Positions 2,120 to 61,542 of a stretch of 64,000 nt of DNA are shown here, one piece after another. Below the pieces are notes generated by a model, which did no database searches, was not told the DNA's origin, and saw only the letters and a list, made by a program, of their open reading frames with translations. The number at the start of each line of letters is the position of its first letter. The stretch's first letter is position 1. A program made the translations under genes and the position numbers. The stretch spans positions 128,073-192,072 of the forward strand of contig JBLWYD010000001.1 in assembly GCA_048267165.1 (NCBI GenBank), in the 5' to 3' direction. This DNA comes from Bacteroidota bacterium (GTDB lineage Bacteria; Bacteroidota; Ignavibacteria; Kapaibacteriales; UBA2268).

Positions 2120-3271
2120 TTATTCTGTTATCCAATCATAGTAATTGTCTTGATTAATAGCTTGGAAAGTCGCATTATCATAGTTTGTCTTCCATAGCGG
2201 CGGTACTTTAACTTTCTTATTAGCACCCCATTTTATCTCATAACCATCTAATCGGCCTTCAGTTTCCTCTACTAAGTCTATTTCCTGTCCGTCATAAGTA
2301 CGCCAAAAATATCTATTTACTATTTTTCCATCATATGTCTGTTGCTTTAACCTTTCGCTAATAAGATAATTTTCCCAAAGTTGCCCCATATCGTTACGAA
2401 GGTGAATAGGGTTCATATTAGCAATTAGTATATTCCGCAAACCATTGTCGTAGAAATACCACTTACTACTTTTCGTTACTTCTTTACGTAGGTTCTTACT
2501 GAAACCACTCAATTGATGGATTACAAATACTTTTGAGAGTAAATCCAAATATCTTTCTACTGTGTTTTTACTCATTCCTAGCTGCCTACCTAATTCTTGA
2601 TAAGAAACTTCATTACCTACTTGGAATGCAATTAACCGTAGTAAATTGAATATCTTACTCGAATTTCTAATCTTATCTAATGTAAGTATATCCTTTAGTA
2701 GATATGAATTTAGTATCTCATTCAAATAATCGACTTTGTCTTCTTTACTGTTTAGATGCATCAGCTCTGGGTAATTACCGTATATTAATCTCTTATCAAG
2801 ATTATCTTTATACTGACTTGGACCTTCAATTGCCCTATATTCTTTTTCACTAATCGGATATAAATAAAAGGTTTTCTTTCTGCCAGTAAGTGGTTCACCT
2901 GTTACATTAGCTATATCGAAAGCAGAAGAACCTGTGACTATAATTTTTAGTCCTGGAATACCGTCAATCATTAACTTTAGTATCCGCCCAATATCCTCTA
3001 TGTGCTGAGCTTCATCTATGATCAAGAGCCGTTTACCACCGAGTAAATTCTCGTAGTTCTGAATACTTCTTCGGTTGAGTAACTCGTGAGTAGTTACATC
3101 TTCTCCATTGAGGAAAACACTCGGTTCATCTATTGATTTCAACAATCTATTGAGTAGTACAGTTTTCCCAATACGTCTTGGGCCTAATAGTACAATAACT
3201 TTATTAGGTACTAAGCTCTTTATTAGCTTTGTTTCTATACTCCTAGATAATATTTCAGTTGTAGTATTCAT
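2120..3271 (-). CDS. AAA+ ATPase with AAA_14 + DUF4143-type architecture
   Basis: Walker A GPRRIGKT, Walker B LLIIDEAQ, winged-helix-like NEVSYQELGRQLGMSKNTVERYLDLL, and a C-terminal tail typical of this stand-alone ATPase family. Confidence 0.85.
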   Translation of the reverse strand: MNTTTEILSRSIETKLIKSLVPNKVIVLLGPRRIGKTVLLNRLLKSIDEPSVFLNGEDVTTHELLNRRSIQNYENLLGGKRLLIIDEAQHIEDIGRILKLMIDGIPGLKIIVTGSSAFDIANVTGEPLTGRKKTFYLYPISEKEYRAIEGPSQYKDNLDKRLIYGNYPELMHLNSKEDKVDYLNEILNSYLLKDILTLDKIRNSSKIFNLLRLIAFQVGNEVSYQELGRQLGMSKNTVERYLDLLSKVFVIHQLSGFSKNLRKEVTKSSKWYFYDNGLRNILIANMNPIHLRNDMGQLWENYLISERLKQQTYDGKIVNRYFWRTYDGQEIDLVEETEGRLDGYEIKWGANKKVKVPPLWKTNYDNATFQAINQDNYYDWITE

Positions 3272-3318: not shown

Positions 3319-3423
3319 CTATTGACTGAATTAGTGTTAATTCAGTCATCATATTGACGCAATTAATGTTAATTCAGTCATCGTATTGACGCTATTTGCA
3401 TTAATTCAGTCACTATACTGGTG
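3319..3423. repeat. palindrome plus three abutting 32-bp tandem units (iteron-like) upstream of the ATPase gene
   Basis: TGACTGAATTA (3323-3333) / TAATTCAGTCA (3338-3348) form 11-bp inverted arms with a 4-nt spacer. Units TTAATTCAGTCATC(A/G)TATTGACGC... start at 3337, 3369 and 3401; the third is truncated and degenerate. Confidence 0.8.
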
Positions 3424-3526
3424 TCGCTATCTAATTTTATTGTTAATTGAGGTATTATCCAATAATATAGCTAATTTGTTCGTGTATGTGATACCATAAT
3501 ATCAATTATAATAGAATTCTATAGTT

Positions 3527-3871
3527 TTGAAAAGAATAACATCATATATTTATAAGAAAAATAAAAGCCGGTCATTGTTTATGATTGCGCTGATGTTGTT
3601 CGTTTCTACTTCTACTTTCCCATACTTTGGTGATATGTTGGCAAGGGCAAACATATCAATAAATGAAATAAACGAAGAAGAGAACGAAACTCATAATACT
3701 AACTCAAAAAATAAGGTAGGTGCATATTACTCGATAAATGAACTCCATAAGTTCTTATCTGACTATAGCACTAATTTATCTTCTATTACATACAGTCTAA
3801 AGCAATACGCAGACTATATACCTGAAGTATGTACACCACCTCCCGAATATACACAGCTACAATCAGCATAA
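3527..3871 (+). CDS. hypothetical protein (weak call)
   Basis: ORF only, TTG start, one N-terminal hydrophobic segment (FMIALMLFVSTSTF), no recognisable motif. Confidence 0.35.
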   Translation: MKRITSYIYKKNKSRSLFMIALMLFVSTSTFPYFGDMLARANISINEINEEENETHNTNSKNKVGAYYSINELHKFLSDYSTNLSSITYSLKQYADYIPEVCTPPPEYTQLQSA

Positions 3872-3970: not shown

Positions 3971-5584
3971 ATGTGTATATATATGAATTCAAATAAAGAA
4001 AGTTTTTTATCAAATATAAAAAGTGATTTACCAGCAAGTATAGTAGTATTGCTAGTAGCTATACCACTATGTTTGGGTATAGCCCTTGCATCTGGGGCAC
4101 CACTTTTCTCTGGAATTATTGCGGGTATAGTAGGCGGTATAGTAGTTGGTGCTATTAGTAAATCATCATTAGGCGTAAGTGGTCCTGCTGCTGGTTTAGC
4201 AGTAATCGTATTAGTAGCTATCCAAGAGCTTGGTGCTTATGATATATTCTTGCTTGCTGTTGTGATAGCAGGTATTTTCCAAATTATCCTTGGCATACTC
4301 AAAGCAGGAGTAATAGGTTACTATTTCCCTACCTCTGTTATCAAAGGTATGCTATCGGGTATAGGTATCATTATTATATTGAAACAAATACCCCACGCTT
4401 TCGGCTATGATGCTGATTACGAAGGAGACCTTGATTTCGTTCAACCTGATGGTCAAAACACGTTCAGCGAGTTATTCAACATGGTTAACTACATAAACGA
4501 AGGTGCGTTGATAATCGCGGCAGTATCATTAGCGATATTAATATTATGGGATAGACCATTTATCAAAAATATAAAGTCTCTGAAATTAGTACAAGGTCCA
4601 TTAGTTGCTGTGATTGTTGGTATTGTACTTGGAATTGTATTTCAAGAAATACCCGGTTTAGCGCTTATGCCTAAACAATTAGTAAACATACCTGTTGCTG
4701 AATCGTTTAATGGTTTTATATCACAGTTTACTTTACCTAACTTTAGTCATCTAACAAACCCCGCTGTGTATTCTGTTGCTTTTACAATAGCAGTAGTAGC
4801 TAGTTTGGAAACATTACTAAGCGTAGAAGCTACTGATAAACTCGACCCTGAGAAGAGAGTAACACCGACTAATAGAGAGTTAACAGCACAGGGTGTCGGA
4901 AATATTGTTTCTGGAATGATTGGTGGATTACCAGTAACTCAAGTTATTGTTAGAAGTTCTGCCAATATTCAATCTGGTGGAAAAACAAAAGCCTCCGCTA
5001 TTATGCATGGTGCATTATTATTAGTTTGTGCTATAGCTATTCCGAACATATTAAATTTAATTCCTTTAGCGAGTCTTGCAGCTATTCTATTCGTAGTCGG
5101 ATTTAAGTTAGCAAAGCCAGCTCTTTTCAAACAGATGTACGAGAAGGGGTATAGCGAATTTGCTCCATTTGTGGTAACTATTGTAGGTATAGTATTCACA
5201 GATTTACTTGTCGGAATAGGATTGGGTATGTCAGTAGCAATTGTTCAAATATTATGGAAAAACTACAAAACTCCTTACGAAATAATCAAAGGTAATTCGG
5301 AAGGAAATCATTTGACACTAAGACTATCTGAAGAAGTTAGTTTTTTGAACAAAGCTGGAATACTACGTACATTAGATCTGATTCCTAAAAATACTAAATT
5401 AGATATTGACGCAACAAGAACAAAGTTTATCCACCCCGATGTCATAGAGATAATGGAGGACTTTAAAGAGAATGCTAGAACAAAGAATATTTCTGTTAAT
5501 GTAATTGGTTTAGGAATGGGAATGATGGAAAAAGACCCATTAGACGAGTTTAACGAATTAGTAGTAAATGGAACAAATAAATAA
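3971..5584 (+). CDS. SulP-family anion (sulfate/bicarbonate) transporter with C-terminal STAS domain
   Basis: Polytopic N-terminal region with SulP-like blocks (LPASIVVLLVAIPLCLGIALASGAP, NRELTAQGVGNIVSGMIGGLP). C-terminal soluble STAS-like region (LTLRLSEEVSFLNKAGIL). An alternative ATG lies at 3983. Confidence 0.9.
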   Translation: MCIYMNSNKESFLSNIKSDLPASIVVLLVAIPLCLGIALASGAPLFSGIIAGIVGGIVVGAISKSSLGVSGPAAGLAVIVLVAIQELGAYDIFLLAVVIAGIFQIILGILKAGVIGYYFPTSVIKGMLSGIGIIIILKQIPHAFGYDADYEGDLDFVQPDGQNTFSELFNMVNYINEGALIIAAVSLAILILWDRPFIKNIKSLKLVQGPLVAVIVGIVLGIVFQEIPGLALMPKQLVNIPVAESFNGFISQFTLPNFSHLTNPAVYSVAFTIAVVASLETLLSVEATDKLDPEKRVTPTNRELTAQGVGNIVSGMIGGLPVTQVIVRSSANIQSGGKTKASAIMHGALLLVCAIAIPNILNLIPLASLAAILFVVGFKLAKPALFKQMYEKGYSEFAPFVVTIVGIVFTDLLVGIGLGMSVAIVQILWKNYKTPYEIIKGNSEGNHLTLRLSEEVSFLNKAGILRTLDLIPKNTKLDIDATRTKFIHPDVIEIMEDFKENARTKNISVNVIGLGMGMMEKDPLDEFNELVVNGTNK

Positions 5585-16000: not shown

Positions 16001-16084
16001 AACGAATAACCCCTTATTAATGATGAAATTGTGCATGATTAAACTATGGAATTTGTTTCGATTATGCAAATTTTATTTACTTAG

Positions 16085-18154
16085 TTAAATACTATATCTG
16101 AAATAAATATTGACACTTATACCTGGGTTGGGTACTCCATATACTGATAGGTTAGACATTGGGTCCACATATTCGCGGTTCAACAAATTCTTTCCACTCA
16201 AACCTAAAGTCAAATCTCTATCATATAGAGATACATCTGTTTGCAAGTTCAGATTAAGCAAATTGTACCACTTACCACCACTATTTGTAACCAATCTACC
16301 ATCGTTCCATATATTCATAAACTGAAGGAATTGGACAGCAATCTGTGGCTTTTTGAAAGAACCCATATTTGCGAAACTATGTTTTAATTCTAGATTCAGT
16401 TTATCAACTGGTAGATTGTAGATTATATAACTGTTAGAAATTAGATTATTTTTAGTAGTCGAGAAGCTAATATCAATATCTGTGCTACTCGTTTCCCAGG
16501 TGGAAGTAAAACCAATACCAAGCTCGAAGCCATAGAACTCTGCATCGTTTTGTATGAAATTGAATGTAGGTCTAATTTCTGGGCGTGATGGGTTTAGAAC
16601 TTTCTCTAGGTAAATGAAATCGTTAAATTTTTGGTAGAAAACTGAACCGAAATATCTGAACTCTTTAGCAGTTTCATTAAATGAAACTTCGACTGAAGAT
16701 GATCTTTCAGCATCAAGATTATTATCACCATATTCTATTCTCATAGATTCTGGTTTGTAACCAGCTGCGGCTAGTTCGTTTATATTAGGAGGACGGAAGC
16801 CAGTAGCTAAGTTTAGAGAAATCTTACTAGTATTTGAAGCCAAATAACTAGCACCCAAATTACCCGAAAAATCAGCAAAGTTCTTATCGAAATTTGCTCC
16901 GAATAGATTACTGTAGTTCTTAGTAGAGTATGCAACTCTATCCCAACTAATGCCGCCATTCAGACCCCAATCAGAAGTCTTATAATCAGATGCCAAAAAA
17001 GCGCCTGTATTAAGCACATTATTATCAGGTACAAAAGTATAAACAGCAGTGTTTTTCATATCCGAATACTCAGTTCTGATGCCTAAATTAGTCTCGAAGT
17101 TATTAGTTTGGATAATCGGGTATGCCGAGCGGAAATGGAATGCATTGGTTTGCAAACCTATGAACTTAGTCGGTACTTTTGGGTTGCCATTCAGTGGTTC
17201 AAACTCATCACGCAAATCGAGTTCCCTAGCAGCTGCTACTTGTAGAGCTTTATCGCCGATTTTAATATCAGAGTTGATTTGTAATCTATTACCAACTATC
17301 GAATGATATGGTGCTTCGAATTCGTGTGGGTATTCCTCTTCCTCAACTCCCGGAACCTCTACCTCAAAAGGATCCAGAATACCGTATAATGCAAAGTTGA
17401 GCTTATATCTAATTTTGATACTACCCCAATTCTCTTTGAAGCCATATATAGCGTCGAATCCAGTCCGCCAGAAACGTGTATTGAATGCTCGTTGATTATC
17501 AGCATACCGATAATCGCTTATAGATTTAGTATCGAAAGAAATTTTCCAAAATGAGCTTTTTCCAGTGTTACCAAGCCCCTCGATTCTACCGAAGAAGCCC
17601 AATCCATTGGTCATAAATCCCGCGTTAGTATTCAACTTTGTATCAGTCATGTTCATAGATATGTGGTCTTCGAAAAGCAACGCCCCTCCGATAGCATCAG
17701 TACCATACATCATAGTAGAAGTACCAAGCACAGCTGTCGCTTGAGTGAAGTCATTATCGTTGATTCCCAAACCGTGCAACTCATCCCACGCTTGAGTAGC
17801 GAATCCAAGACCATCTATTAGGGTTTTCACTCTTGTGCCACCCATACCTCTGATAATCGGCCTAGTTATTCCTTCACCAAAGGAAGTCATAGATATACCC
17901 GGTAGGTTTGCAAATGCTGCTGATACAGATGATGGCGAGTATTTGAATAAGTTTTCTTGGTTGATTTTAGTAATCGATTGTGATCGTAGTATGGGGGTGT
18001 GTGATATATCGGATAAGACTAAAATGTCTTGGCTTGTGTAAGTCGTAGTGTCCAATTGTTGGTATTCTGTTTGGTTTTCTATGTTTCGCGAGTATGTCCG
18101 AACTCGAACTAAAAAGATTGAAACTGTTAGCAAAAATATATACTTATAATTCAA
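16085..18154 (-). CDS. TonB-dependent receptor
   Basis: Plug-domain blocks (NLPGISMTSFGEGITRPIIRGMGGTRVKTLIDGL, GTDAIGGALLFE) and a long beta-barrel region. Confidence 0.9.
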   Translation of the reverse strand: MNYKYIFLLTVSIFLVRVRTYSRNIENQTEYQQLDTTTYTSQDILVLSDISHTPILRSQSITKINQENLFKYSPSSVSAAFANLPGISMTSFGEGITRPIIRGMGGTRVKTLIDGLGFATQAWDELHGLGINDNDFTQATAVLGTSTMMYGTDAIGGALLFEDHISMNMTDTKLNTNAGFMTNGLGFFGRIEGLGNTGKSSFWKISFDTKSISDYRYADNQRAFNTRFWRTGFDAIYGFKENWGSIKIRYKLNFALYGILDPFEVEVPGVEEEEYPHEFEAPYHSIVGNRLQINSDIKIGDKALQVAAARELDLRDEFEPLNGNPKVPTKFIGLQTNAFHFRSAYPIIQTNNFETNLGIRTEYSDMKNTAVYTFVPDNNVLNTGAFLASDYKTSDWGLNGGISWDRVAYSTKNYSNLFGANFDKNFADFSGNLGASYLASNTSKISLNLATGFRPPNINELAAAGYKPESMRIEYGDNNLDAERSSSVEVSFNETAKEFRYFGSVFYQKFNDFIYLEKVLNPSRPEIRPTFNFIQNDAEFYGFELGIGFTSTWETSSTDIDISFSTTKNNLISNSYIIYNLPVDKLNLELKHSFANMGSFKKPQIAVQFLQFMNIWNDGRLVTNSGGKWYNLLNLNLQTDVSLYDRDLTLGLSGKNLLNREYVDPMSNLSVYGVPNPGISVNIYFRYSI

Positions 18155-19877: not shown

Positions 19878-20519
19878 ATGATAAATGATCAAATAAAATT
19901 CTTCGATTTTCTTAATAATCGACTCAAATCTGATTTGCCGGGTGCGAAAGCACACATCAAAATGGCACCATTCGGCGATTTGGAGCGACTAAATAATAAT
20001 ATACCAAGAGCGGACGCCAAAAAGAGCGCAGTTCTCCTACTCATTAACGAGAAAATGGAACTTTTGTTCACTCTACGAAGTAGCAAGTTACGCAAACATA
20101 GTGGACAAATCTCATTTCCCGGTGGTAGAGCAGACGATGGCGAAACCTACGAACAAACAGCTCTCCGCGAGACTGAAGAAGAAGTAGGAATTAGCAGTAG
20201 CAAAATAGAACTAATAGGGCGGATGTCTGGGCTATACGTTCCACCTTCGAATAATATAATCCAGCCAGTAATAGGGCGAATTCCTAGTAATATTGATTTA
20301 CTACTAAACCCCGATGAAGTGGAAGAAGCATTCTACGTGCCACTAGAGAGCTTCCTCAATGAAGAAATGCTGAAAACAAAGAACACAGTTTTCAATGGCA
20401 AACCGTTCGCGTATCCTTATTGGGATGTGCACCACAGTGTACCCTTGTGGGGAGCCACAGCTATAGTTATGAGTGAATTTATTTATTTAGTTAATGAGTT
20501 TAGGGAAGGGGGTGATTAA
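19878..20519 (+). CDS. NUDIX hydrolase, CoA pyrophosphatase-like
   Basis: Nudix box GGRADDGETYEQTALRETEEEVGI preceded by SGQISFPGG. The ATG at 19878 keeps the conserved LPG..AH.KMAP N-terminus. Confidence 0.85.
   Translation: MINDQIKFFDFLNNRLKSDLPGAKAHIKMAPFGDLERLNNNIPRADAKKSAVLLLINEKMELLFTLRSSKLRKHSGQISFPGGRADDGETYEQTALRETEEEVGISSSKIELIGRMSGLYVPPSNNIIQPVIGRIPSNIDLLLNPDEVEEAFYVPLESFLNEEMLKTKNTVFNGKPFAYPYWDVHHSVPLWGATAIVMSEFIYLVNEFREGGD
20476..20507. repeat. 32-bp direct repeat, copy 1 (inside the last codons of the NUDIX gene)
   Basis: AATTTATTTATTTAGTTAATGAGTTTAGGGAA; 31/32 identical to 21715-21746. Confidence 0.9.
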
Positions 20520-20935
20520 GGTGATGAGTTTGCTAATTCATTTCTTATATACTCTTTATCTTCAAAGCTAACAGCTCTAGATTTTAGTAATAAGTTTAAG
20601 ATAGCAATATAGTCTTCGTTAGTGATTTGACCACTATATTTAAAATCTCCTTTTAGAATTAATGACTCTATATCCTCTTGGAGTATCTCCTTTGTTTGCC
20701 AGCAATTCACAAAAGTATCTAAGGTGGCATTCAGGATTACAGAATGATTAATCTTTAAAAGAAAATCTTCTCTTTCAGTACCTAAGAATGCCTTTTGATT
20801 TTCTTTTTGACTTGTGCATACAGAGATTAGAAATGGAGTTGAGCTAGAAAGAAATATATGATAATGCGGCTTCTCGGGGAATTCTGGATTCCTAAAATAA
20901 TATACACTTTTCGCCTTAATTGAATAGTTAGCCAT
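20516..20935 (-). CDS. unknown 139-aa protein, candidate toxin partner of the Panacea-domain gene
   Basis: ATG lies 11 nt after the stop of the upstream gene (a TTG at 20941 is also possible). No TM segment and no recognisable toxin motif. Confidence 0.65.
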   Translation of the reverse strand: MANYSIKAKSVYYFRNPEFPEKPHYHIFLSSSTPFLISVCTSQKENQKAFLGTEREDFLLKINHSVILNATLDTFVNCWQTKEILQEDIESLILKGDFKYSGQITNEDYIAILNLLLKSRAVSFEDKEYIRNELANSSP

Positions 20936-20946
20936 TTTCAAGAGTG

Positions 20947-21558
20947 TTAGGCGTTGAATTCTTGGTAGTAGGCCTTACTTGAATTAATTTCCCCTTCACT
21001 CTGAGAACTAAAAATCGTAAGTGGATCATCTTTTGGATTTTCGAAGAAATCACTCATATCGATTGAGATGCTAGATTTAGGATTCTTATTTATTTCTGTC
21101 TTGTGCTTTAACCATTCGGGATATAGATGAGTAATATCTACTAAATCAAAACTTCCCTTATCTTTACTTAGCTGATAAACTTCCTCTAGAACTTCAATAT
21201 CTGTTTCAGAAAATTTACCCTGGTCAACATCTTCAATTGATTGATATGTGTAATTATTTAAAACTTCGATATACAGACTTTTATAATAGTTTTGCTCTTG
21301 ATTAAGTCGATTAGAAGCACCTGTTATATCTTTCGCTAATGAACCAACTGGTCCATATTCCATTGCAAAATATGTGTCATTTGTCAGTGTACTACCATAC
21401 TTTCGCAAATGCAGTCTATCCGCTAACCAATATATTTTTATTGCTTTTAATTTATCTACTTTACCACCCTCTTTTCTTGCTATCCAGTTTAATACCTGTA
21501 CGGATTTCAAGTAATTTCGTCGTAAATTAGGATAATTTGATCTGTTAAATTTTTCCAT
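20947..21558 (-). CDS. DUF4065 / Panacea-domain protein (SocA/PanA-like antitoxin candidate)
   Basis: KAIKIYWLADRLHLRKYGSTLTNDTYFAMEYGPVGS block. The ATG at 21558 is preceded by AGGAG (Shine-Dalgarno) 7 nt upstream. Confidence 0.75.
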   Translation of the reverse strand: MEKFNRSNYPNLRRNYLKSVQVLNWIARKEGGKVDKLKAIKIYWLADRLHLRKYGSTLTNDTYFAMEYGPVGSLAKDITGASNRLNQEQNYYKSLYIEVLNNYTYQSIEDVDQGKFSETDIEVLEEVYQLSKDKGSFDLVDITHLYPEWLKHKTEINKNPKSSISIDMSDFFENPKDDPLTIFSSQSEGEINSSKAYYQEFNA

Positions 21559-21714
21559 GTTCTCACTCCTTTCTGTACAAAAATAATATTTCACATCATT
21601 TTTTCCAAAGTAATTCTTTTTATTTCAATACATTTGCTTGTATATCGCTTAATATCTAAACGAAATAAATACAAAATAGTTTTACCTTAATTCTGACTAC
21701 CTCCCCTACCCCTA

Positions 21715-21746
21715 AATTTATTTACTTAGTTAATGAGTTTAGGGAA
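21715..21746. repeat. 32-bp direct repeat, copy 2
   Basis: AATTTATTTACTTAGTTAATGAGTTTAGGGAA, followed in the NUDIX frame by AAT AAT TCG TAA. Confidence 0.9.
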
Positions 21747-21769
21747 AATAATTCGTAATTTGTGCGACT

Positions 21770-23164
21770 ATGAATGACTTAAATAATAAAACAATCGATT
21801 GGTCTGTGCCCCCTGCGAGTACGGATATTCCAGCTTTTTTAGCTCCTGATACAAAGAGAATAAATATAAGCAATAACTCACAGTTATTGCATTTCTATAG
21901 TAATACGCACCCCCTTGTTTCTTTCAAAATCGTATTCCACAAAGGAACATCTGAGGAAGAATACCCAGGTATTTCGAAAGTTATGTTCGAGCTTCTAACA
22001 TCAGGTACTGATAGCAAATCGGCTCTCGATTTCGCGACTGAACTCGATTATCTAGGTGCTTCGCTCAACTTTACTGAAAGTAAAGATTATGCAATTTGTA
22101 GATTAGATTGCCTTAAAGATGTTTTCGATACGGCATTTGAGCTACTGAAAGACGCTCTTTTCAATCCAAAATTCGACGATCAAGAAATAGAAAAAACTAT
22201 ACGTAAATTCAAATCAGCTAAAGAGCAAGAAGAGGCGGACTCTAACTACCTCAGCACTACCACTATGATGGCTTCGCTTTTCCGTGAGCATCCGTACGGT
22301 AACCCAGAATATGGCTTCAGCGATGAGATAGAGGAATTCACACGTAAGAATATCAAAAACTGCTGGGAATCGTATATTTCTGGTGCAAGAGTTTCTATAG
22401 TTGCTACGGGTAATATGCGCGAAGAAACTGCTCTAAAATATGCTAACCAATTAGTTAACCAAATGGCTGATGATGTATATAATGAGGAAGTAGATAATAT
22501 ACTCGTTCGTGAGCAAAACAAACTAGTAATTGTGAATTTCAATTCTAGTTCGCAATCTGTTATTAGTGTTGGTAAGCCAACAATTAACATAAAGCACGAG
22601 AATTATGCTGGTCTTAGTCTTGTCAATGTTATCTTTGGTGGGTATTTCCTATCTAGGTTGAACCACTTGATAAGAGAACAAAAAGGATTGACTTACGGAG
22701 TTCATTCTTCTATTAGCTCGGCTGTTCATACAGGACTACTGGGTGTATCTACGTCTGTTAATCTGGATAAAACTAGAGAAGTAGTCTCGGATATACTTGA
22801 AGAAATGTCAAAAATAGCAAATGAAATGCTAGAAGATGACGAGCTACAAAGAGCAAAGAACTACTATCTTGGTAGCTTCCTACGTAGTGCAGAGAGCCAC
22901 AAGCAAATCTCGAAAATGCTAACAACAATCGCTCTCAATGACCTAGATGATGACTATTATAACGGATTTTACAGAAAAATAAAGAATATAAGAAGCGACG
23001 AACTTTTCAGCACACAGATTGACTTATTCAAGCCAGAAGGTCTATCAATAGCAATAGCTGGGAACGAAAAAAAGCTAGTAGAGCAGTTTGATGGCTACTT
23101 CGATAGATACGATATATTGGACAAAGAAGGCAAGATTTTAGGACGTTACGAAAACAATAACTAA
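21770..23164 (+). CDS. M16 (pitrilysin/insulinase) family protein, probably the non-catalytic type
   Basis: M16 two-domain layout. The position of the HxxEH zinc motif reads GISKVMFELLTSGT, so there is no His pair. Confidence 0.75.
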   Translation: MNDLNNKTIDWSVPPASTDIPAFLAPDTKRINISNNSQLLHFYSNTHPLVSFKIVFHKGTSEEEYPGISKVMFELLTSGTDSKSALDFATELDYLGASLNFTESKDYAICRLDCLKDVFDTAFELLKDALFNPKFDDQEIEKTIRKFKSAKEQEEADSNYLSTTTMMASLFREHPYGNPEYGFSDEIEEFTRKNIKNCWESYISGARVSIVATGNMREETALKYANQLVNQMADDVYNEEVDNILVREQNKLVIVNFNSSSQSVISVGKPTINIKHENYAGLSLVNVIFGGYFLSRLNHLIREQKGLTYGVHSSISSAVHTGLLGVSTSVNLDKTREVVSDILEEMSKIANEMLEDDELQRAKNYYLGSFLRSAESHKQISKMLTTIALNDLDDDYYNGFYRKIKNIRSDELFSTQIDLFKPEGLSIAIAGNEKKLVEQFDGYFDRYDILDKEGKILGRYENNN

Positions 23165-24972: not shown

Positions 24973-25308
24973 TCATTCAATATTTGTAATGAAAATATGA
25001 GAATAAGCAGGTCCCATGTCGTGGCATACTATAAGTTCATCATTTTTGGGTTCTCTAAATTCTACATAAATTCGCATCCCTTTAGTTTTTAAATTGTCGG
25101 GTAAATTATTCGCATAATAAATTTTCCCAAATGCATTTTCAGGCAGTCCCGTGACCGTATTATCAAGTTCTATTAATAATAAACCACAATCCATTCCTTT
25201 TCCAAGAACTGTTGCATTAGTTTGGTCTTCAAAATTTGTTGTAGATTTATCGCTACATGAAATTAATATGAATACTAGTCCTATAATAAATACAATTATT
25301 TTTTTCAT
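24973..25308 (-). CDS. small lipoprotein, hypothetical
   Basis: Lipobox ILISC|SDKS. ATGA overlap with the upstream gene. Confidence 0.7.
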   Translation of the reverse strand: MKKIIVFIIGLVFILISCSDKSTTNFEDQTNATVLGKGMDCGLLLIELDNTVTGLPENAFGKIYYANNLPDNLKTKGMRIYVEFREPKNDELIVCHDMGPAYSHIFITNIE

Positions 25309-25889
25309 TCTATTTTCTCTCCTGTTTCGACTCCATTTATTTTAGAGTAAATTAAATCTATTTTATCTATTTGCCAAAAACTACTAACTAATCCTATATC
25401 TTTTGCATAATAAAACATAATCCCTGCATCCCTCTCTATCTCACCTTCTTCTATAGAAGCGTAATCATTAAAGTCACCAACTTTAGTCCTAATTACTGTA
25501 GAACTATTTTTTTCCATTATAGTCTTTAATCTTAACGAATTGTATGTATCATTATCTATAGTAATATCCTTAAATACTCTAAAAAGTAAATCTTCATTGT
25601 CCTTATAAGTATAATAATAAATACCGTCATTGGTTCGGATATAATTTGTGTCTAATTCAAAAATATTATCAACAAGAACGAAGTATTCTCTTTTAGATAT
25701 TACCTTTTTTCCTATGATTTTTAAATAAAGATAGGACGTGTCTTGTCTAACAGATTCATATTGCCACTCATTTCCTACATGTAAAGGAAAATATGACCCA
25801 TTAGAATTTTTAATTCCTGGTTGTGTTGAATTATCATCGCTGCACCCCAAAATAGCTAACAGAGCTAGTAGTAGTAATATTTTATTCAT
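25305..25889 (-). CDS. lipoprotein, hypothetical (shares its signal peptide with the next cassette)
   Basis: ATG at 25889 gives MNKILLLLALLAILGC|SDDN. It overlaps the stop of the upstream gene by 8 nt. Confidence 0.75.
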   Translation of the reverse strand: MNKILLLLALLAILGCSDDNSTQPGIKNSNGSYFPLHVGNEWQYESVRQDTSYLYLKIIGKKVISKREYFVLVDNIFELDTNYIRTNDGIYYYTYKDNEDLLFRVFKDITIDNDTYNSLRLKTIMEKNSSTVIRTKVGDFNDYASIEEGEIERDAGIMFYYAKDIGLVSSFWQIDKIDLIYSKINGVETGEKIE

Positions 25890-26439
25890 CCCAACTCCAT
25901 TCATAATATCTTAATGTATCAAATATCATCTCAGTGTCCTTAGAAATTTTAGGTATTGAGATTGCCTCGGTATAACCAGCGCCTTCTTTTGTTACGTCTC
26001 TTATGGTTATATCAAGTACATACCTACATTGATTTAATTTCGAATTTTTAAATATTTTCCTAATGAACCAAGGACTTCCACCATTTGTCCTTACCTCAAA
26101 GAGTATTAAATCCCTCTTAGAAAAATCCACATCAATATAATTAGTATCATTATTGCATGGTAATCCCGAATTTTCAATTAAAACTTTAGATTCTTCATAC
26201 AATTGCTTAAATTCATTTTCCTGTTTTATCAGTTTACCTCTTTCATACAAATCATACCAGATACAAGGTATCTCTAATGTATCTATATCGGTCATTTCCA
26301 CCCAATTGGGGTCACTTTCGAGTTCCTCTAATGTGTATTTTTTATCAAGGTTTTCCTTGACTTCGTTTTTAGTAGGTGCATTATCATCGCTGCATCCTAT
26401 GAAGGCTAATAGAGCAAGTAGTAGTAATATTTTATTCAT
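25882..26439 (-). CDS. lipoprotein, cassette paralog B
   Basis: MNKILLLLALLAFIGC|SDDN. Long identical stretches with the 26432 ORF (NEVKENLDKKYTLEELESDPNWVE, TDIDTLEIPCIWYDLY, FDTLRYY). Confidence 0.8.
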   Translation of the reverse strand: MNKILLLLALLAFIGCSDDNAPTKNEVKENLDKKYTLEELESDPNWVEMTDIDTLEIPCIWYDLYERGKLIKQENEFKQLYEESKVLIENSGLPCNNDTNYIDVDFSKRDLILFEVRTNGGSPWFIRKIFKNSKLNQCRYVLDITIRDVTKEGAGYTEAISIPKISKDTEMIFDTLRYYEWSWDE

Positions 26440-26986
26440 CATAACTCCAATCATAATATCTTAATGTATCAAATATCATTTCCATATCACTTGATATTTT
26501 AGGTATAGAGAATGCTTCTGTAAAATTAAAACCTACTTTGGATCCACCTCTAATGGTTATTTCAAGCACATATATACATTGATTTAATTTCGAATTTTTA
26601 AATATTCTCCTTTTGAACAATGGGCTACCTCCAATTGGACCGAACTCAAATAATATTAAATCTCTATTGGAAAAATCCACATCAATATAATTAGTATCGT
26701 TTTTGCACGCCCATTCCGAATGTTCCATTAAAGCTTTTGACTCATCATACAAATTTTTATATTCAGCATCAGTCCTAATTACTTTACCCATTTTATACAA
26801 ATCATACCAGATACAAGGTATCTCCAATGTATCAATATCGGTTATCTCCACCCAGTTTGGGTCACTTTCTAGTTCTTCTAATGTGTATTTTTTATCTAGG
26901 TTTTCCTTGACTTCGTTTTTAGTAGGAGTGTTTTCATCGCATCCTAAGAAAGTTAGTAGAGTTAGTACTAGTATTATTTTTTTCAT
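26432..26986 (-). CDS. lipoprotein, cassette paralog A
   Basis: MKKIILVLTLLTFLGC|DEN. Full-length paralog of the 25882 ORF. Confidence 0.8.
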   Translation of the reverse strand: MKKIILVLTLLTFLGCDENTPTKNEVKENLDKKYTLEELESDPNWVEITDIDTLEIPCIWYDLYKMGKVIRTDAEYKNLYDESKALMEHSEWACKNDTNYIDVDFSNRDLILFEFGPIGGSPLFKRRIFKNSKLNQCIYVLEITIRGGSKVGFNFTEAFSIPKISSDMEMIFDTLRYYDWSYDE

Positions 26987-45696: not shown

Positions 45697-48600
45697 TTAT
45701 TTAACAATCATCACTTTGATGAAGTCAGAGTTACCACCAGCGTTCATTCTGATGCTATATGCTCCACTGCTTAATTCAGAACCGAAATCAGTTCTTGAAT
45801 TCCACTTGATTTCACGAGTACCTTCAGGATAGAAACCTTGACCAAATACGCCAATTACTTTTCCTACTTCGTCTATTAATTCAAACTCAACATTAGATGC
45901 TTTGTTCAAGTTAAACTTGATAACACTTTCGCCATTTACTGGGTTAGGTGATACGCTAGTTATAGAGTTAGTTGTAGTAATTTGTGTATCTTCTACATCA
46001 CTCATTACATCGTTATAGATAACGAATGCTTTGATAGTTGCATTGATTAAAGTCAATGTTGCAATATTACCAGTTAAGTCAAAAGTAGCATTAGTTGGTG
46101 ATACTGATCTTACAGTAGGATCACTCATCTTGATATGGAAGTAAGAACCATCAGAGATAGGATCTCTTAAATACCAAGTTGAACCTTGTGGGTTTCTAGT
46201 TGCATCATTCTCATCAGGAACAGTTGTAATGTCCCAAGATATAGTTACAGGATAGTTAATAGCAGTTTGACCACTTTCACCACCAGCTTGTATTTGAGCA
46301 ACATAGATTAAGTCAGTTTGACCACTTTCAGGATATATACTTCTCAAGATACCATTGATTGTAGGCAATGTCCATCTTGCGTCGAATACGTCTTGTTGTG
46401 GGTATGGAGGTAATTCATATTCACAATAGTTGTGATCTAATTTACCAACATCTTCACCATCTCTACCATCACCTGTAGTAACATTAGAAGCAGCAACACC
46501 AAATTCTAGAACTTGGAATGCACCGATTGAGTTAGTTACTGTAATAGGAGCTGTAAAGTTAGTTGCTTCAGATAATTTCAATCTAAATCTCATAATAGAA
46601 GTTTCGCCTTCTGCATCTGTAGCTTTGATTTGAACAGTAATTCTACCATCAGCATCAACAGGTACATTAGCAATGTCTGCTGTAAAGATTAAGTTAACTT
46701 TAACTGAATCATTATCAATAGTAGCACCATCTAATATGTATTTGTCTAATTCAACACCTGAAGAAGGTAATTCTACTACTAGAGTTACTTTTTCTTGAGG
46801 AGTAACAGAATCATCTCTTTCAAAGTCTTTGTCAACAACATATATAAAGTTGTTAGTAGTCAAAGAACTGTTAGGATCGATACAGTCAACATCAGGAGCA
46901 AGAGCCAATTGAGGACCTTGATTAGATGCTTCTACAACTAAAGTATAAGTTTCTAGTGCAGGAAGACCATCTTCATCAGTTACTAATACAATTACTTGTT
47001 CAGTTTTAAGTGCATCGCCTACTTCTGGAGTACCATATAGTAAACCACTTTCAGGGTTGATTTTCAACCATTCAGGAGTATAGCCATTAGCACCATATCC
47101 ATTAACATCGCCTTCATCCCAAGTACCAGCTTCAGCATAACAAGGATCTTTAGCTATTGGACCTCTACCACTGTAGATCAACTCGTAAGTATGTTCTTGG
47201 TGGAAGTTAGGGTCTTTAACTTTAATTGCTCTTGAAGAATCAATTAATTGATTATTATAATCAAATCCTTCTATAGCATTGTCTAAAGTTGTAGTTGTAA
47301 TAGTAGGTGCAAAGTTTACAAAAACTTCAAGTTTTTGTTCTAATCTTCCACCATGACCATCATTTACAACAAATACAAATGCTGTATCAGTGTTATACTC
47401 TTCATTTTGTCTATTTAATGGCGCAAGTATTTGATCAACTTCAGCTCTGTCAATTCTAATATTCAGTTTACCTGAAGTAGTAAAGTCATCAGCAAAACCA
47501 TCTATAGTAACTTCATCATCATATCTATAGATATATTTATCAGCCATCCAAATTGGTCTTTCTTGATCGATTAAAGTATCAAGTCCACCTAAGTCATTAG
47601 ATATAATAGTAGAATCAATAACAACTGTATCGCCAGCTGAGATTATTTTGTTCATGAAACCATAAGCAGTTCTACCATATCTGAAATCCCATCCGTGTTC
47701 TGAAGCAGCATAAGCATCTTCAATTTCGTCATCAGTGTTGATGTCGATTTGGAATCTTAATTTGTCAGTTACGTTAGCTTTCAATCTAGGAGTTCTTTCA
47801 TTTGTTTTACCACAAGTTAGAACACTAGGTTCGTATATTGCAATAATGTCTTTAACTGTAGTACCATCAGACTCATATCTGTATAGTTCTTCTCTTGTGA
47901 AGTTCTCATCCAAATATACTGGTGGTTGATCAATTACGAATATTTCAAATTCGTATGAAGTTTTCCAGCCATTAGCGCCTGCAACGTCGATAGTATCTTG
48001 TTGTAAGTATCTAGCTCTATCTACATCATAAGAACTTGCATTGAAGTAAGGACCATAAGTCTCTATAAACTTGTCAATTTGTTCTTGTGTAAATAATCCA
48101 GAAGCTACCATAGAATCTAATGTTCTGTAATGTGGAGGATAATTAGCAGCAGAAACTGCAACTTTCTCACCACCCGGTACTACGTACGGATTAACTGGAT
48201 GACCTTTTAATACAACATGACCTTTAGCATTGTCTTTAAGACTTAATGGATTGCTAGCATAAAGTGTATCTGCTTGTAACCAATTAGCCAAACCAGAATT
48301 TCTAGCTACATCCCAAGTGTAAGTTAAAGAAGTATAGTTATCAGGATCAGCTAAAGAACGTGGATCATAGAAGTTGTTAGAATCAACTGCAGTAATAGCT
48401 AAGATACTATCTCTAGCATTTGCATAGTTACCTGGGTAAGTTCTATCTTCAGTTATGAATATTCTATTAGCAAGATCAGTTATGTAAATAGTATCCATTT
48501 GGTTGTTAGATCTTTTAACAGGGTCTAACGATGGAACTAACTTCATAATAGTATCATTTTGTAATGTAACGATATTACCAGTAAATTCAGGAGGTAGAGT

Positions 48601-51600
48601 AGCTCTAACTATTTTGAATTCAAGACCATCGTCATAAGCAGCTATAACACCTTCTTTCCATAGTACTTGTCTAGATATAACTCTGATTACGTCACCAGTA
48701 TCAACAGGAAGAGCTTCATATCTCTCACCAGCAAAATATGTTACGATATCTTCAGTAATATTAGAAGGATCATTAATAGCAGGTCTGTTACTGTATAAAT
48801 CAGAAACTTTACCTAATTGTCTGAAATCAGCTTCATATTTTCTACCTGGTACAGTTGCACCAACTTCATTATAAGCATTATCTTCCAATTTAGCCATTAA
48901 ACTAAATCCAGCACCAAAGTTAAATAGACCTTCAGAAGTTCTTCTGTATAGTGTATTTGGATTTCTGTTTGTTGAATCAGGAACAAACTCAACTCTAGAT
49001 CTGAAGACTTCTCTATAAGGAGCAGTTTCAGAAACTTGTTGTAAGTTAGTTCTGATATAATCACCAGTAGTTTCGTTTATAACGAAGAATACTGTTTCAT
49101 TTGTAGTTTCAGGTATGTGGTTGCTTCTTTCAGCAAAGCCATCATAATCTGCATGTGATTCTAAGTATAATGGGTATCCGATAGGGTGATAGAAATCACC
49201 ATTGTTATCAGGCATAAATTCAGATTGAAGAGCAGTGATATAAGGGAATTTCAAATTGCCTTGATCATCTAACAATCCAACACAATAAGGATCTCTAGTT
49301 GTTCTTCTTACATATTTTCCATCAGAAGGTTGAGTCGGAGCTACAAATCTTCTAGTAGAGTAAGGGATACCAACTGCAAAGTCTTCGATTGGAGACATGA
49401 TTCTCTTAGAGTAATCAGCAGTTTTAATATCAGTACCTTTGTCATATAAGTCATAGATTTTACCAGACATTAATAATTTCTCATCAATACTAGTTGCAGC
49501 GTGAGTATTTTCATCACCTGTTGCGTTCTCTAACATTATAGGAGTATAAGTATATTCATCGAATATAGATTCGAATGGACCTTGCTCTAAAGGATTAGCA
49601 GAGTTTCTAACAAATGGTAATGCAGAAGTAGTACCACCAGCAACGAAGAATGTTTCATTCAACGCTAATGGATAACCTAAATCATTGATTACATCTACAG
49701 TTACATTTGCTTGAGTTCTACCCCAGAAGTTACCGTTAAGTGGATTAGTTCCACCAAGACCTAAGCCTAAGTTACCAGCCAAAACACCTTTAGTGTTAGG
49801 AGCATCAGGTAAACGAACGATAAATCTAGCATTGTTACCATATACAGAGTTACCTGCAACTGGACCTGTACCTACTGGTAATGGACCTTGCATTTCACCA
49901 TAAATAACCGCACTAGCTAAATCAGAAGATGCTTCGTTTGAAGAAATACCTTTATTACCATCTAATACGATAGGACCAGAAATAGTATTTTGTTCAACTC
50001 CAACATCAGATAAAGCAGTGTTAGCAGAGATTAATGATCTACCGAAGATCAATTTCAAATCAAAGTTATCAGAATAGATAGCAGCACCAGTATAAGCAGT
50101 GTTGTTTAATATTCTAACACGGTTGAAAGAAACTGAGTCAGTTCTGTTCAATTGATTAACATCAGCATTGTCTAAGATATAGATTGCTCCACCAAGACCA
50201 ACACCATTTTCTGGTAAGTTAGTACCTGGGTGCATTCTAGCTACATCATAATGACCAGCATTGCTAGGATTTGTTTCATTCCAAGTAGCACCACCGTCTT
50301 CTGTTTTCAATAAAGTACCATAGTCACCTACAGCATATCCAACTGAATTAGAAGAGAAGTGAATTCCTTGTAAACCAAATCTTGTTAAATCTTCCATCAA
50401 AGTCCAAGTAGCACCACCATCAGTAGTAGATAACATATCGCCATATACAGTAGTTATAAAACCTTTTGTAGAAGATATGAATACTATGTCAGTTAAGTTA
50501 GCAGTTGTACCAGATGCAACTGTATGCCATGAATCACCACCATCAGTAGTAGAAAGTAAAGTACCTCTTTCACCAATGATGAAACCTTTACTTACACTTG
50601 TAAAGAAGATTTTATTTAAGTCATAATTAGGGATTGGAGGAACAACTTCTTCCCATACTGTACCACCATCAGTAGTACGTAGGATTAATCTGTCATCTCC
50701 AACTACGAAACCTGAATTCAAGCTACCATAATAAACACCATTAAGGTTTTGTTGTTGTGGTTGCATTGTATTCCATGTTGCACCAGCATCATGAGATTCG
50801 TAGATTAGACCATTGTTAGTAACAGCATATAAATCATTTTGACCAATAGAATAGAAGTCATTGAATTGATTTAAAGTGTTAGTATTGATGTTGAACCAAG
50901 TACTACCCGCATCAGTTGATTTTTTCATGATACCTTGAGCACCAACGATATAACCAGTACTTGCGTTAACAAATTCTACATCTGTTAATCTGTGATTAGT
51001 GTTTGAAGTTGGGTATTCCCAAGTTTCGCCACCATTTTTAAATTTAACGATAGTACCAAACAAACCAACAGCATAGCCTGTTTGATCCGAAGTAAAGAAG
51101 TTAGATAGAAAAGGTGATCTTGTTCTAAATACGCCTTCAGCGAATTGTGTAGAACCAGAACCCATTTCTTCAATAGCTCTAGCTTCAGAAATAGCTTGGT
51201 TACCTTTAAATTGAGTTAACATTCTTGAGTCAGGAGGGAAGTTGATTATATCACCATAAGTGAATACATCATCTCTTGAGCTCATGCCAACTGCAACATC
51301 TTTTGAGTCATAAGAAATATTATCTGCATCAGATACAAAGTATCTTCTGTTTAAGTTAAAAGGCTCAACCATTGAAAGTGCACCACCGTTACCATTGTAA
51401 ACAGTATTACCATTAAATTCAACACCTTTAACTAAGTTAAGGTCACCACCAGAAGAATAGACTGCTCCACCACCTCTAAGTTGACCAAGGTTCTTATCAG
51501 CTACATTCATACCTACAGTATTGTTCAAGAACATTGTTCTAGATAACTGAACAGCTCTTTGGAAATATGGAGGATTATCAGCAGTAGGGATTTGGAAGTG

Positions 51601-53688: not shown

Positions 53689-53784
53689 AATACCTCCAAT
53701 AAACAAATTATTATTAAAAAATTAACTTTTAGTTTCATTATTATAGTGTTTAGTTTAATTCAAATGCTATTTCGCAATTAAATA

Positions 53785-59527: not shown

Positions 59528-59887
59528 ATGAATATAGAAGAGTTAAGAGAATATTGCCTAACTAGATTACACACTACAGAGGATACACCATTCGATGAGA
59601 CTACTTTAGCTTTCAAAGTTGGGGGAAAGATATTTGCCCTTACTAATATGGAAACAATACCGACGAGAGTAAACCTAAAGTGTGACCCCGAAAGAGCTAT
59701 CGAGCTACGAGAGAATTACCCAGAGGTGATTATCCCTGGTTACCACATGAGCAAGAAACATTGGAATACTGTCTTCATTGAAGAATTAGATACAAGCTTT
59801 ATCGAGGAACTTGTTAGTCATTCTTATGACTTAGTCTATAAATCGCTGACAAAATCTAAGCGATTAGAATTAGAAGGCGGAGCCTAG
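59528..59887 (+). CDS. MmcQ/YjbR-family protein
   Basis: TEDTPFDETTLAFKVGGKIFAL...KCDPERAIELRE...PGYHMSKKHWNTV matches the YjbR pattern. The start abuts the stop of the phosphatase gene. Confidence 0.85.
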   Translation: MNIEELREYCLTRLHTTEDTPFDETTLAFKVGGKIFALTNMETIPTRVNLKCDPERAIELRENYPEVIIPGYHMSKKHWNTVFIEELDTSFIEELVSHSYDLVYKSLTKSKRLELEGGA

Positions 59888-60456
59888 TTTCTTCTTAATA
59901 TACCGAAATAGAACATCTTAGTTAGTTGGTTTACCAACTCATCAGTTGATTCGTATATATTATTTAATCTGTCGTATAAAATTAGTTCGTTGATATGCTC
60001 TAGAAAAAATGAGATGAATTCTAGCTTCACATCATCTCTGAAATTACCTTTTTTCTGTTCCAAGATTATATACTTTAGTGAAAGGTCTCTATGAAACTCG
60101 ACTTTACTCCTCATATAATCTTTCATCTGAGGATTGTCCTGCTTAACGATATCACGTATTAAATCAGGACTAATTTCCTTAACAGACTCCATATTAAAAT
60201 AGATGAGTTCCATTATTTTTTCGATGAATGGTATATTCTTTGTGAATATTTCATTGTAAGCGACTTCTAAACCAGCATAGTTTTCATCAAGGATTTCTTT
60301 TATTATATCGAATTTATTTTCGTAGGCACGGTAGAAGGTCATTTTACTTAGACCAGCCGCTTCGCAGATATGGTCAACAGTAGTCTTGTTGACTCCTTGT
60401 TTCCATATTAACTTTCTAGTAGCTTCTAGAAGTTTTTTATGTGTAGCATCTTTCAT
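59884..60456 (-). CDS. TetR/AcrR-family transcriptional regulator, copy 1
   Basis: HTH block TTVDHICEAAGLSKMTFYRAYENK. Starting at ATG 60456 aligns with the copy 2 start (MKD.T..KLL). Confidence 0.9.
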   Translation of the reverse strand: MKDATHKKLLEATRKLIWKQGVNKTTVDHICEAAGLSKMTFYRAYENKFDIIKEILDENYAGLEVAYNEIFTKNIPFIEKIMELIYFNMESVKEISPDLIRDIVKQDNPQMKDYMRSKVEFHRDLSLKYIILEQKKGNFRDDVKLEFISFFLEHINELILYDRLNNIYESTDELVNQLTKMFYFGILRRN

Positions 60457-60500
60457 TATAAGCCCCATTTATAATTTGAGATATTGTAAGCACAATACCT

Positions 60501-60516
60501 AAAACTTTAAAGTTTT
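60501..60516. promoter_or_regulatory. perfect 16-bp palindrome AAAACTTTAAAGTTTT upstream of TetR copy 1 (candidate operator)
   Basis: Perfect dyad 45 nt upstream of the TetR-1 start codon. It shares the AAAGTT/AACTTT half-site with the inverted repeats at 60738 and 61827. Confidence 0.35.
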
Positions 60517-60660
60517 AGATGATGTGTATCGTTTTATCTATTCATTTTAAATGGTAATAATTACTTTTCGTAGGCGTTCCTTTTTTCTGAATCTTTGATT
60601 AATGATTTGTTAATTTATAATTATAAATTGACTTTTCAAAATATTTATTAGTTATAAAAC

Positions 60661-60688
60661 TTGACGTTCAAACGGATAATAGTAACAT
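60661..60688 (+). promoter_or_regulatory. sigma70-like promoter candidate TTGACG-N16-TAACAT, copy 1
   Basis: Conserved with copy 2 at 61750-61777. The consensus may not apply if the host uses Bacteroidota-type promoters. Confidence 0.3.
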
Positions 60689-60737
60689 CGGGGCTATGTT
60701 CTATTTTTCCATATACACAATAACAAACTTATGTAAT

Positions 60738-60764
60738 AAAAGTTACATTTAGGTAGCAACTTTT
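60738..60764. promoter_or_regulatory. inverted repeat AAAAGTT-N13-AACTTTT, copy 1
   Basis: The arms are conserved in copy 2 (61827-61852, N12 spacer) while the spacer differs. Confidence 0.35.
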
Positions 60765-60969
60765 CTAATTGTATACGGAATTATAGGGTTTTATGCAAAT
60801 CGAATATTTGGTATGCCTGTTAAATTAAGGGGCTTAATAAAATAATGCTTAAACAAAAGAATTTGTAAACTAGTACTACATTCAAAGTTTACATCAGAAT
60901 ATTTGACAAGGTATATTTTAGATGTCGGAAAATTAGTTTGAAGGAGTTACATCAAGTAAAAATAAATGC

Positions 60970-61542
60970 CTAGTTTCGCCTTAATATTCCAAAATAGAAC
61001 ATTTTAGTTAATTGGGTAACAAGTTCATCTGTTGATTCATATACGCAATTAAGTCTTTCCTCTAACGCTAGTTCATTGATATGCACTAGGAAAAAGGAAA
61101 TGAATTCCAACTTAACGTCACTTCTAAAATTTCCCTTTTTTTGTTCAATAATTATATACCTCATAGATAAATCTCTATGAAATTCAACTTTGCTTTGCAT
61201 ATAGTCTTTTAAATGAGGGTTCTTTTGTTTTATAATATCGCGAATGAATTCGGGGCTGACTTCTTTTACAGTACCCATAATATAATAGATAAGCTCCATA
61301 ACTTTTTCAATGAATGGAATATTTCTACTGAATATTTGGTCATAATCTTCTGCCATTGTTCTGTAATTTTCGTCGAGGATTTCTTTGACGATATCGTATT
61401 TGTTTTCGTATGCTCGGTAGAATGTCATCTTGCTGAGGCCAGCATCATCACAGATTTGGCTAACGGAGGTTTTATTCACTCCCTGTTTCCATATTAACTT
61501 TCTAGCTGAGTCTAGAAGTTTTTGGTTTGTTAAATCTTTCAT
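60970..61542 (-). CDS. TetR/AcrR-family transcriptional regulator, copy 2
   Basis: HTH block TSVSQICDDAGLSKMTFYRAYENK. Roughly three quarters identical to copy 1 by eye, with an identical C-terminus LTKMFYFGILRRN. Confidence 0.9.
   Translation of the reverse strand: MKDLTNQKLLDSARKLIWKQGVNKTSVSQICDDAGLSKMTFYRAYENKYDIVKEILDENYRTMAEDYDQIFSRNIPFIEKVMELIYYIMGTVKEVSPEFIRDIIKQKNPHLKDYMQSKVEFHRDLSMRYIIIEQKKGNFRSDVKLEFISFFLVHINELALEERLNCVYESTDELVTQLTKMFYFGILRRN

Follow-up and report, generated by a model that had tools for sequence, protein, structure and literature searches.

We analysed a 64,000-nucleotide (nt) stretch of DNA, hereafter the window, from an uncultured Bacteroidota bacterium of the order Kapaibacteriales (GenBank assembly GCA_048267165.1, contig JBLWYD010000001.1, positions 128,073 to 192,072 of the forward strand). 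Between a NUDIX gene and an M16 peptidase gene, the window carries a small cassette that encodes a putative toxin–antitoxin (TA) pair and is bracketed by 32-bp direct repeats. We describe this cassette and its counterparts at the same site in relatives, whose contigs and lineages are referred to by our own handles (L and P numbers).

Repeats and genes at the NUDIX–M16 junction

The NUDIX open reading frame (ORF; 19878–20519, plus strand) matches PF00293 (E = 3.4e-18) and, below that model's own cutoff, the CoA pyrophosphatase family NF007980 (6.5e-27). It ends in the 32-mer AATTTATTTATTTAGTTAATGAGTTTAGGGAA (20476–20507, plus strand), which encodes ...EFIYLVNEFRE and forms the functional NUDIX 3′ end; the last three codons and the stop (GGD*, 20508–20519, stop at 20517–20519) come from inserted DNA. 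A second copy of the 32-mer lies at 21715–21746 on the same strand and matches the first at 31/32 positions (T>C at position 11). The two copies start 1239 bp apart and enclose 1207 bp, and with up to three mismatches allowed they are the only two in the window (0 expected in 100 shuffles). The right copy is a displaced NUDIX 3′ end that is now non-coding; base for base it equals the 32-mer that the relative L098 carries natively at its empty site. Behind it the same frame continues AAT AAT TCG TAA (NNS*, stop at 21756–21758), followed by an 11-nt spacer and the ATG of the M16 gene at 21770; this displaced tail and spacer (21747–21769, plus strand) are identical to the junction at empty sites. 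The M16 peptidase gene (21770–23164, plus strand; PF05193 and PF00675) forms the right core flank, and NUDIX–M16 synteny was found in all relatives fetched.

GC content is 0.27–0.34 between the repeats, compared with 0.38–0.43 in the flanks. The insert holds two co-directional minus-strand genes, a Panacea-domain gene upstream and then a gene for a 139-amino-acid (aa) protein, and no recombinase. A preliminary description of the sequence had reported this gene content, the two repeats with their single mismatch and 1239-bp spacing, and the alternative NUDIX tail NNS* ending 11 bp before M16, all of which our analysis confirms; it had also considered that the 32-mer might be a dispersed generic repeat, which the count of two copies in the window does not bear out. 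An exact 17-mer, TTTATTTACTTAGTTAA, matching the right copy over its 5′ portion, C variant included, occurs at 16072–16088, 5.6 kb upstream at the stop of a TonB-dependent receptor ORF (0 expected in shuffles), and may be either a coincidence of AT-rich sequence or a third copy of the repeat that is incomplete.

The upstream cassette gene (20947–21558, minus strand) encodes a 203-aa Panacea-domain (PanA/SocA-like) protein with a clear match to PF13274 (SocA_Panacea; E = 2e-19, 71 bits, cutoff 25.7). Translation probably starts at the ATG at 21558, which gives the length seen in homologs; a 215-aa ORF opening with GTG appears overlong. After an 11-nt gap follows the gene for the 139-aa protein (20516–20935, minus strand, ATG at 20935), the stop of which overlaps the NUDIX stop. 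This second protein matched nothing in Pfam, NCBIfam or PADLOC, and PF02452 (PemK_toxin), which did not match the window protein, recognized only 1/29 family members at E = 1e-3. Among 5.8e9 proteins we found only four close clusters, all at the NUDIX–M16 locus, and a profile search of 1.84e9 representatives added about 50 remote proteins of approximately 145 aa that have the motifs PHY.IC, CCTSQ, TLV.I and DTYVNCN in common.

An AlphaFold (AF2) model built from a 29-sequence alignment reached a predicted local distance difference test (pLDDT) score of 90.6. When it was compared with the PDB by Foldseek, the top 45 matches were MazF proteins save for one CptN type III toxin, with probability 1.0; the best, 5hk0_C, had E = 4e-4 and a template modelling (TM) score of 0.55 normalized to the query and about 0.70 to the target. 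The top matches in BFVD were phage endoribonuclease and PemK-like proteins. The model extends the MazF barrel by helices at the C terminus. It replaces an earlier AF2 model from five sequences (pLDDT 72), for which no meaningful fold match was found, and a profile search against PDB sequences returned only spurious EF-hand matches. Fold and genomic context therefore assign the 139-aa protein as a putative toxin of a MazF-fold family that lacks a sequence model, presumably an mRNA or rRNA endoribonuclease.

The pairing of this protein with a Panacea gene recurs at the NUDIX–M16 locus in at least six lineages, and the two remote toxin homologs that were looked up, from unrelated genomes (P0125 and P0128, 26–28% identity), are each encoded directly downstream of a Panacea gene. 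Relative to L008 and L013, both cassette genes have ratios of nonsynonymous to synonymous substitution (dN/dS) of 0.05–0.17, indicating purifying selection; the ratio is 0.05–0.09 for the Panacea gene and 0.14–0.17 against L008 for the toxin gene, which reaches 0.36 against the near-identical L015. On the predicted structure of its second product, the cassette is best described as a type II PanA-type TA operon, with a Panacea antitoxin followed by a MazF-fold toxin, and we infer that it acts as an addiction or abortive-infection type of defence module. One of these remote pairs, in L112 (GCA_016721005.1, JADKJM010000005.1; toxin 26% identical) adjoins a D12 methyltransferase gene and a Cas9-like gene. 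It is bracketed by a 223-nt direct repeat (1829–2051 and 3479–3701, 90% identical), each copy of which overlaps an ORF of 73 or 78 aa, and is thus a second case, independent of the window, of a Panacea TA pair that lies between direct repeats.

The insert ends on the right in a non-coding region (21559–21714) conserved in L008, L013, L007, L015 and L118. Its core, AATTCTTTTTATTTCAATACATTTGCTT, is the most conserved non-coding element of the islet and is kept where the TA genes are lost and also in the degraded L007. The region is likely to be a divergent promoter, serving the TA operon leftward and M16 rightward, and a weaker suggestion is that it now drives M16, which the insertion would have severed from NUDIX. 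TAnnTTTG-like boxes occur on both strands, one of them 141 nt upstream of M16; because such boxes are only weakly enriched upstream of genes, the idea of an M16 promoter stays tentative. Scans for sigma-70-type promoters and terminators gave nothing above shuffle expectation, and the sole Rfam match was sub-threshold and attributable to chance. Purine- and pyrimidine-rich borders and a hairpin at the right junction (z = −1.7) were considered as terminal inverted repeats and rejected, as they are not conserved in L008 or clade F.

Occupied, empty and decayed sites in relatives

The closest homologs of the NUDIX protein are named as coming from Kapaibacterium or Ignavibacteriota-like metagenome-assembled genomes. 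Among homologs of 64–91% aa identity, most end in ...NEFRENNS or a close variant, and a few end otherwise in the alignment. Sites with a single 32-mer, NNS*, the 11-bp spacer and M16 were found in P0001 (L001–L003), P0004 (L115–L117, at least 24 contigs), P0005 (L113), L098 and the outgroup L099, and the empty site of L002 is identical to the window from the right copy onwards. Comparing the junctions of relatives thus turned up the compact 11-bp arrangement with one repeat, and this native NUDIX end, together with single-copy empty sites in at least five lineages, upholds the view in the preliminary description that the cassette is an insertion.

Occupied sites with the same gene order lie in the window and in L004/L008–L012, L013/L014, L007, L118 and L015; all close toxin homologs and all close antitoxin homologs sit at this one junction. 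The left junction is homologous in every occupied lineage, with a G-rich, GG(G)TGA-like core (GGGGGTGATTAA in the window) that has decayed in L013 and L007. The right copy of the repeat matches at 26/32 positions in L008 and has lost its 5′ half in L013, L007 and L118. Internal deletion has cut the TA genes of L007 down to fragments of 93 aa (toxin) and 35 aa (antitoxin), and L006 carries an apparent scar in which about 12 nt of the left border are joined to the right border. The same cassette arrangement emerged from separate assemblies of JGI, Logan and ENA data, covering many samples. The NUDIX tree has occupied lineages (the window, L008 and clade F) surrounding several that are empty, and loss is therefore the simplest account of the empty sites within the clade.

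The divergence of the cassette follows that of its flanks. Between the window and L008, the number of synonymous substitutions per site (dS) is 0.60 for the toxin gene, 0.87 for the Panacea gene and 0.81 for both NUDIX and M16; between the window and L013, the corresponding nucleotide identities are 73%, 75%, 72% and 79%. Across clades, identities of cassette and flanks run in parallel. The insertion therefore predates the radiation of the clade and was mostly inherited with its flanks, and we read the islet as an old insertion of single origin that, as far as the alignments tell, has been co-inherited with NUDIX and M16 for most of its history.

Origin of the repeats, cargo exchange and mobility

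The NUDIX tail exists as two native alleles, type-R (GAGTTTAGGGAA, encoding NEFRE) and type-T (GAATTTACTC[GA]A, encoding NEFT[RQ]). At occupied sites the left copy is always type-R followed by a foreign tail; the right copy is type-T in L008 and clade F, and in the window, L015 and L096 it is type-R. Left and right copies are separated by an identical set of five substitutions in clades C and F, and since these are common to both clades, the copies were already different in the common ancestor of C and F. Copies that were unlike in that ancestor favour reciprocal recombination between two molecules over duplication at a staggered cut, so the founding event was probably a reciprocal recombination, either between attachment sites (attP × attB) or of Campbell type. 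Polarizing type-R and type-T on the NUDIX tree shows both alleles to be old and native and gives no state for the time of insertion. The 32-mer has no obvious dyad-symmetric core.

One site has exchanged its cargo. In L096 (JGI Ga0209475_10000130), whose NUDIX gene is 92% identical to that of the window, repeats of 31/32 and 32/32 enclose a single plus-strand gene (4139–5317) for a 392-aa protein that matches the PADLOC candidate PDC-S50 (6.5e-80) and no Pfam domain. Its TTG start overlaps the NUDIX stop, and a stretch of about 105 bp behind the gene, including AATTCTTTTTATTTCAATACATTTGCTT, is left over from the right-hand non-coding part of the TA islet. Judged by what it holds across relatives, namely the TA pair, PDC-S50, scars or nothing, the NUDIX–M16 site is a small candidate defence hotspot.

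The occupied L096 and the empty L002, the one such pair that is closely related, allow a comparison of the flanks. Their mgmt-like genes are 99.7% identical. Nucleotides 1–245 of NUDIX are 100% identical and nucleotides 246–630 93.8%; in M16, identity is 95% over nucleotides 1–300 and 99.4% over 701–1395. Divergence thus peaks at the junction, the pattern expected when old alternative alleles are exchanged by homologous recombination within the flanking genes; had the cassette recently been excised at its repeats, the flanks of L096 and L002 should have stayed identical. A second variable spot lies beyond the aminotransferase gene (L096:1–1900 compared with L002 and L097; 16085–18154 in the window), where L096 and L002 are unalignable, yet they are 93–100% identical to its right. 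Near it, L001 and L002 carry a BrxC/BrxD-like AAA_16 gene and the window a TonB-dependent receptor gene.

We favour, with moderate confidence, the reading that the cassette is an old chromosomal TA islet that behaves like an allele and has moved mainly by homologous recombination in its flanks. The islet (20508–21714) would have entered the last NUDIX codons once, in the ancestor of a genus-level Kapaibacterium-like clade, when an incoming DNA segment with a match to the NUDIX end recombined reciprocally, in an integrase-driven or Campbell-type event. NUDIX would thereby have gained its surrogate tail GGD*, and the native 3′ end (32-mer plus NNS*) would have been pushed to the right, still joined to the M16 upstream region. 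Since then, as comparison of the relatives shows, the islet has been kept with its flanks under purifying selection, has eroded by internal deletion in some lineages and, in one, has had its cargo replaced by PDC-S50. Clean empty sites reflect either deletion between the repeats or replacement by an empty allele, and movement from strain to strain has run mainly through homologous recombination in the conserved flanks.

Several observations sit uneasily with this history. The right copy is intact (31–32/32) in the window, L015 and L096, although a neutral 32-mer at dS ~0.8 should carry some 8–10 changes. Its preservation would reflect either constraint, for example on the region upstream of M16, or recent gene conversion or re-integration; the 81 nt from the right copy into M16 are nearly invariant across lineages, and a right copy that had been re-formed would favour more active recombination at the repeats. 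The islet remnant of L096 is 98% identical to that of L015, compared with about 84% between the flanks of L096 and those of the window, and within clade F the cassette genes are 93–95% alike compared with 85% for NUDIX, so that some horizontal exchange with endpoints near the repeats is possible. The left boundary of the cargo swap in L096 falls within 2 nt of that of the TA cassette.

The preliminary description had gone further and seen a non-autonomous cassette that was possibly still excisable. Against active mobility stand the confinement of the toxin family to one locus, the similar dS of cassette and flanks, the right copies that have decayed and the cassettes that have eroded in place, and the L096/L002 pair, which is 100% identical in distal NUDIX and 94–95% identical in the 300–400 bp beside the junction. 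No integrase was found at the NUDIX–M16 site in the approximately 12 occupied or empty lineages fetched, or among the 10 window ORFs tested. A profile search of genome contigs with the NUDIX alignment gave, among the matches listed, only relatives of at most 51% identity and no junctions of close relatives. Viral contigs contained no attP-like copy of the repeat (a 21-mer of it had 0 matches) and no relatives of the Panacea protein or PDC-S50. Two 18-mer matches in viral contigs were considered as attP and rejected as chance, as they lie inside an unrelated coding region (TVNEFRED).

These results bear on how far the repeats themselves have been at work. We think it improbable that the 32-mers are attL and attR of a tyrosine or serine recombinase acting in trans from elsewhere in the genome or from a helper element, with cargos including PDC-S50 exchanged between them, as in cis-mobilizable elements (CIMEs). 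Duplication of a gene 3′ end with a surrogate tail is the classic signature of an integrase, two cargos occupy the same repeats with the same left boundary, clean empty sites exist, and the window, L015 and L096 have kept both repeats intact; in clades C and F, left and right copies represent distinct alleles, the outcome expected of attP × attB recombination. However, no integrase or viral attP came to light in the searches above, the cassette occurs at no other locus, its dS equals that of the flanks, the L096 and L002 flanks have diverged, and the 32-mer lacks an obvious dyad-symmetric core; a tyrosine or serine recombinase beside a copy of AATTTATTTATTTAGTTAATGA would favour this explanation. 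More speculative still is the idea, to us a long shot, that the conserved 32-mer serves as a dedicated docking site at the NUDIX end, at which integrase-less, single-operon defence cassettes (the TA pair, PDC-S50 and perhaps others) are swapped by a recombinase encoded elsewhere or by an efficient short-homology pathway. Uneroded repeats in the window, L015 and L096 and matching cargo boundaries are what such a site would leave as its signature; if the idea were true, Kapaibacteriaceae would possess an integron-like cassette platform confined to one site.

Cycling without any recombinase is somewhat easier to entertain, if still unlikely. RecA or slippage would loop out a circle with one repeat, which after uptake would re-enter at a NUDIX 3′ end by Campbell-type recombination, making the cassette mobile to one site only. 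This would explain its confinement to the NUDIX–M16 locus, and it fits the host-type (type-R) right copies of the window and L096 beside the type-T copies of L008 and clade F, the occurrence of empty sites with either type of tail (type-R in L002, L098 and L115; type-T in L113), the identity of the window's right copy to the native L098 32-mer and the discordant similarities of islet and flanks. Against this, RecA would have very little homology to work with in 32 bp, of which about 22 bp are common to both types; for a circle that does not replicate, transformation is the only known way from cell to cell; between clades B and C, cassette and flanks have the same dS, which makes such events rare at best; and the L096/L002 gradient locates the crossovers in the neighbouring genes, outside the repeat. 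There is next to no chance that the repeat is a coincidence, an assembly artefact or a transposon-style target-site duplication. AT-rich DNA readily yields short repeats, and a 17-mer of the repeat recurs at 16072–16088, but a 31/32 match was expected 0 times in shuffles and the arrangement recurs in independent JGI, Logan and ENA assemblies; a target-site duplication would be identical at birth, unlike copies that differ by five substitutions common to clades C and F, and significant terminal inverted repeats, a transposase and a second locus are all lacking. The comparative data rule this explanation out.

The old chromosomal islet thus remains our preferred reading. The locus provides a natural series at one site (intact, decaying, scarred, empty and cargo-swapped) that shows the birth, persistence, erosion and replacement of a tiny defence or TA islet without a mobility gene, with the exchange of old alleles through flanking homology as the main vehicle. 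Present evidence gives no reason to see in it a new kind of mobile element.

The window contains other repeated features. Units of 78 nt at 2047–2124, 3319–3396 and 3351–3428 (68–72% identical, with TATTGAC...CAGTCA motifs) flank an AAA_14 and DUF4143 ATPase gene (2120–3271) on both sides. Three tandem paralogous ORFs of 199, 190 and 184 aa without a Pfam match lie at 25305–26986 and share a 300-nt repeat (25827–26126 and 26377–26676, 80% identical). At 59884–61800 lies a duplication with a spacing of about 1.09 kb that takes in two paralogous ORFs (194 and 190 aa) together with the sequence upstream of each; its 200-nt and 64-nt repeats are 77–83% identical. A minus-strand ORF of 2669 aa (45697–53706) contains 35-nt periodic repeats about 123 nt apart at 50394–50797.

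Comparison with known systems

Pairs of PanA with MazF/PemK-like toxins have been validated by experiment, and the toxins block translation (PMC8832971). Like the PanAT systems described by Kurata et al. 2022 (PMC8832971), in which a Panacea (DUF4065) antitoxin partners diverse toxins, the cassette is bicistronic, with a Panacea protein adjoining a small toxin; the MazF-like fold predicted for the toxin belongs to the same structural class as some validated PanT proteins, and the Panacea–toxin pairing is conserved in unrelated genomes. The window pair differs in that its putative toxin belongs to a family that has no Pfam or NCBIfam model and numbers about 50 remote clusters, and in the C-terminal helical extension predicted for it. 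The locus would thus bring Panacea antitoxins a further partner, a MazF-fold toxin family for which no sequence model exists.

An example of CIMEs is found in Streptococcus thermophilus, at the 3′ end of fda. CIMEs are remnants of integrative elements that keep attL and attR and have lost the genes for integration and transfer (PMC6323972). The cassette resembles them in being small, in carrying cargo alone, in sitting at the 3′ end of a protein-coding gene between direct repeats that include the gene end (also in L096), and in having no recombinase. In contrast to CIMEs, no cognate integrative and conjugative element, integrative and mobilizable element or integrase for the NUDIX–M16 site was found in the relatives fetched, and the pattern is one of long vertical residence with decay, in which no evidence of excision was seen.

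A further parallel is with core-flanked defence hotspots, such as cDHS1 and cDHS2 of Pseudomonas aeruginosa (PMC10250203) and those mapped in Escherichia coli (PMC10121019). The NUDIX–M16 site has the same conserved core flanks and absence of mobile genes, and among relatives it is likewise empty, occupied or filled with other cargo. For hotspots of the cDHS1/cDHS2 kind it has been proposed that transfer relies on homologous recombination in the conserved flanks, and the divergence gradient between L096 and L002 backs that likeness here. The site differs in scale, holding one or two genes in 1.2–1.5 kb compared with a median of 26 kb, and in its setting, an uncultured Bacteroidota/Kapaibacteriaceae lineage in which a clear 32-bp footprint of the founding event has been kept.

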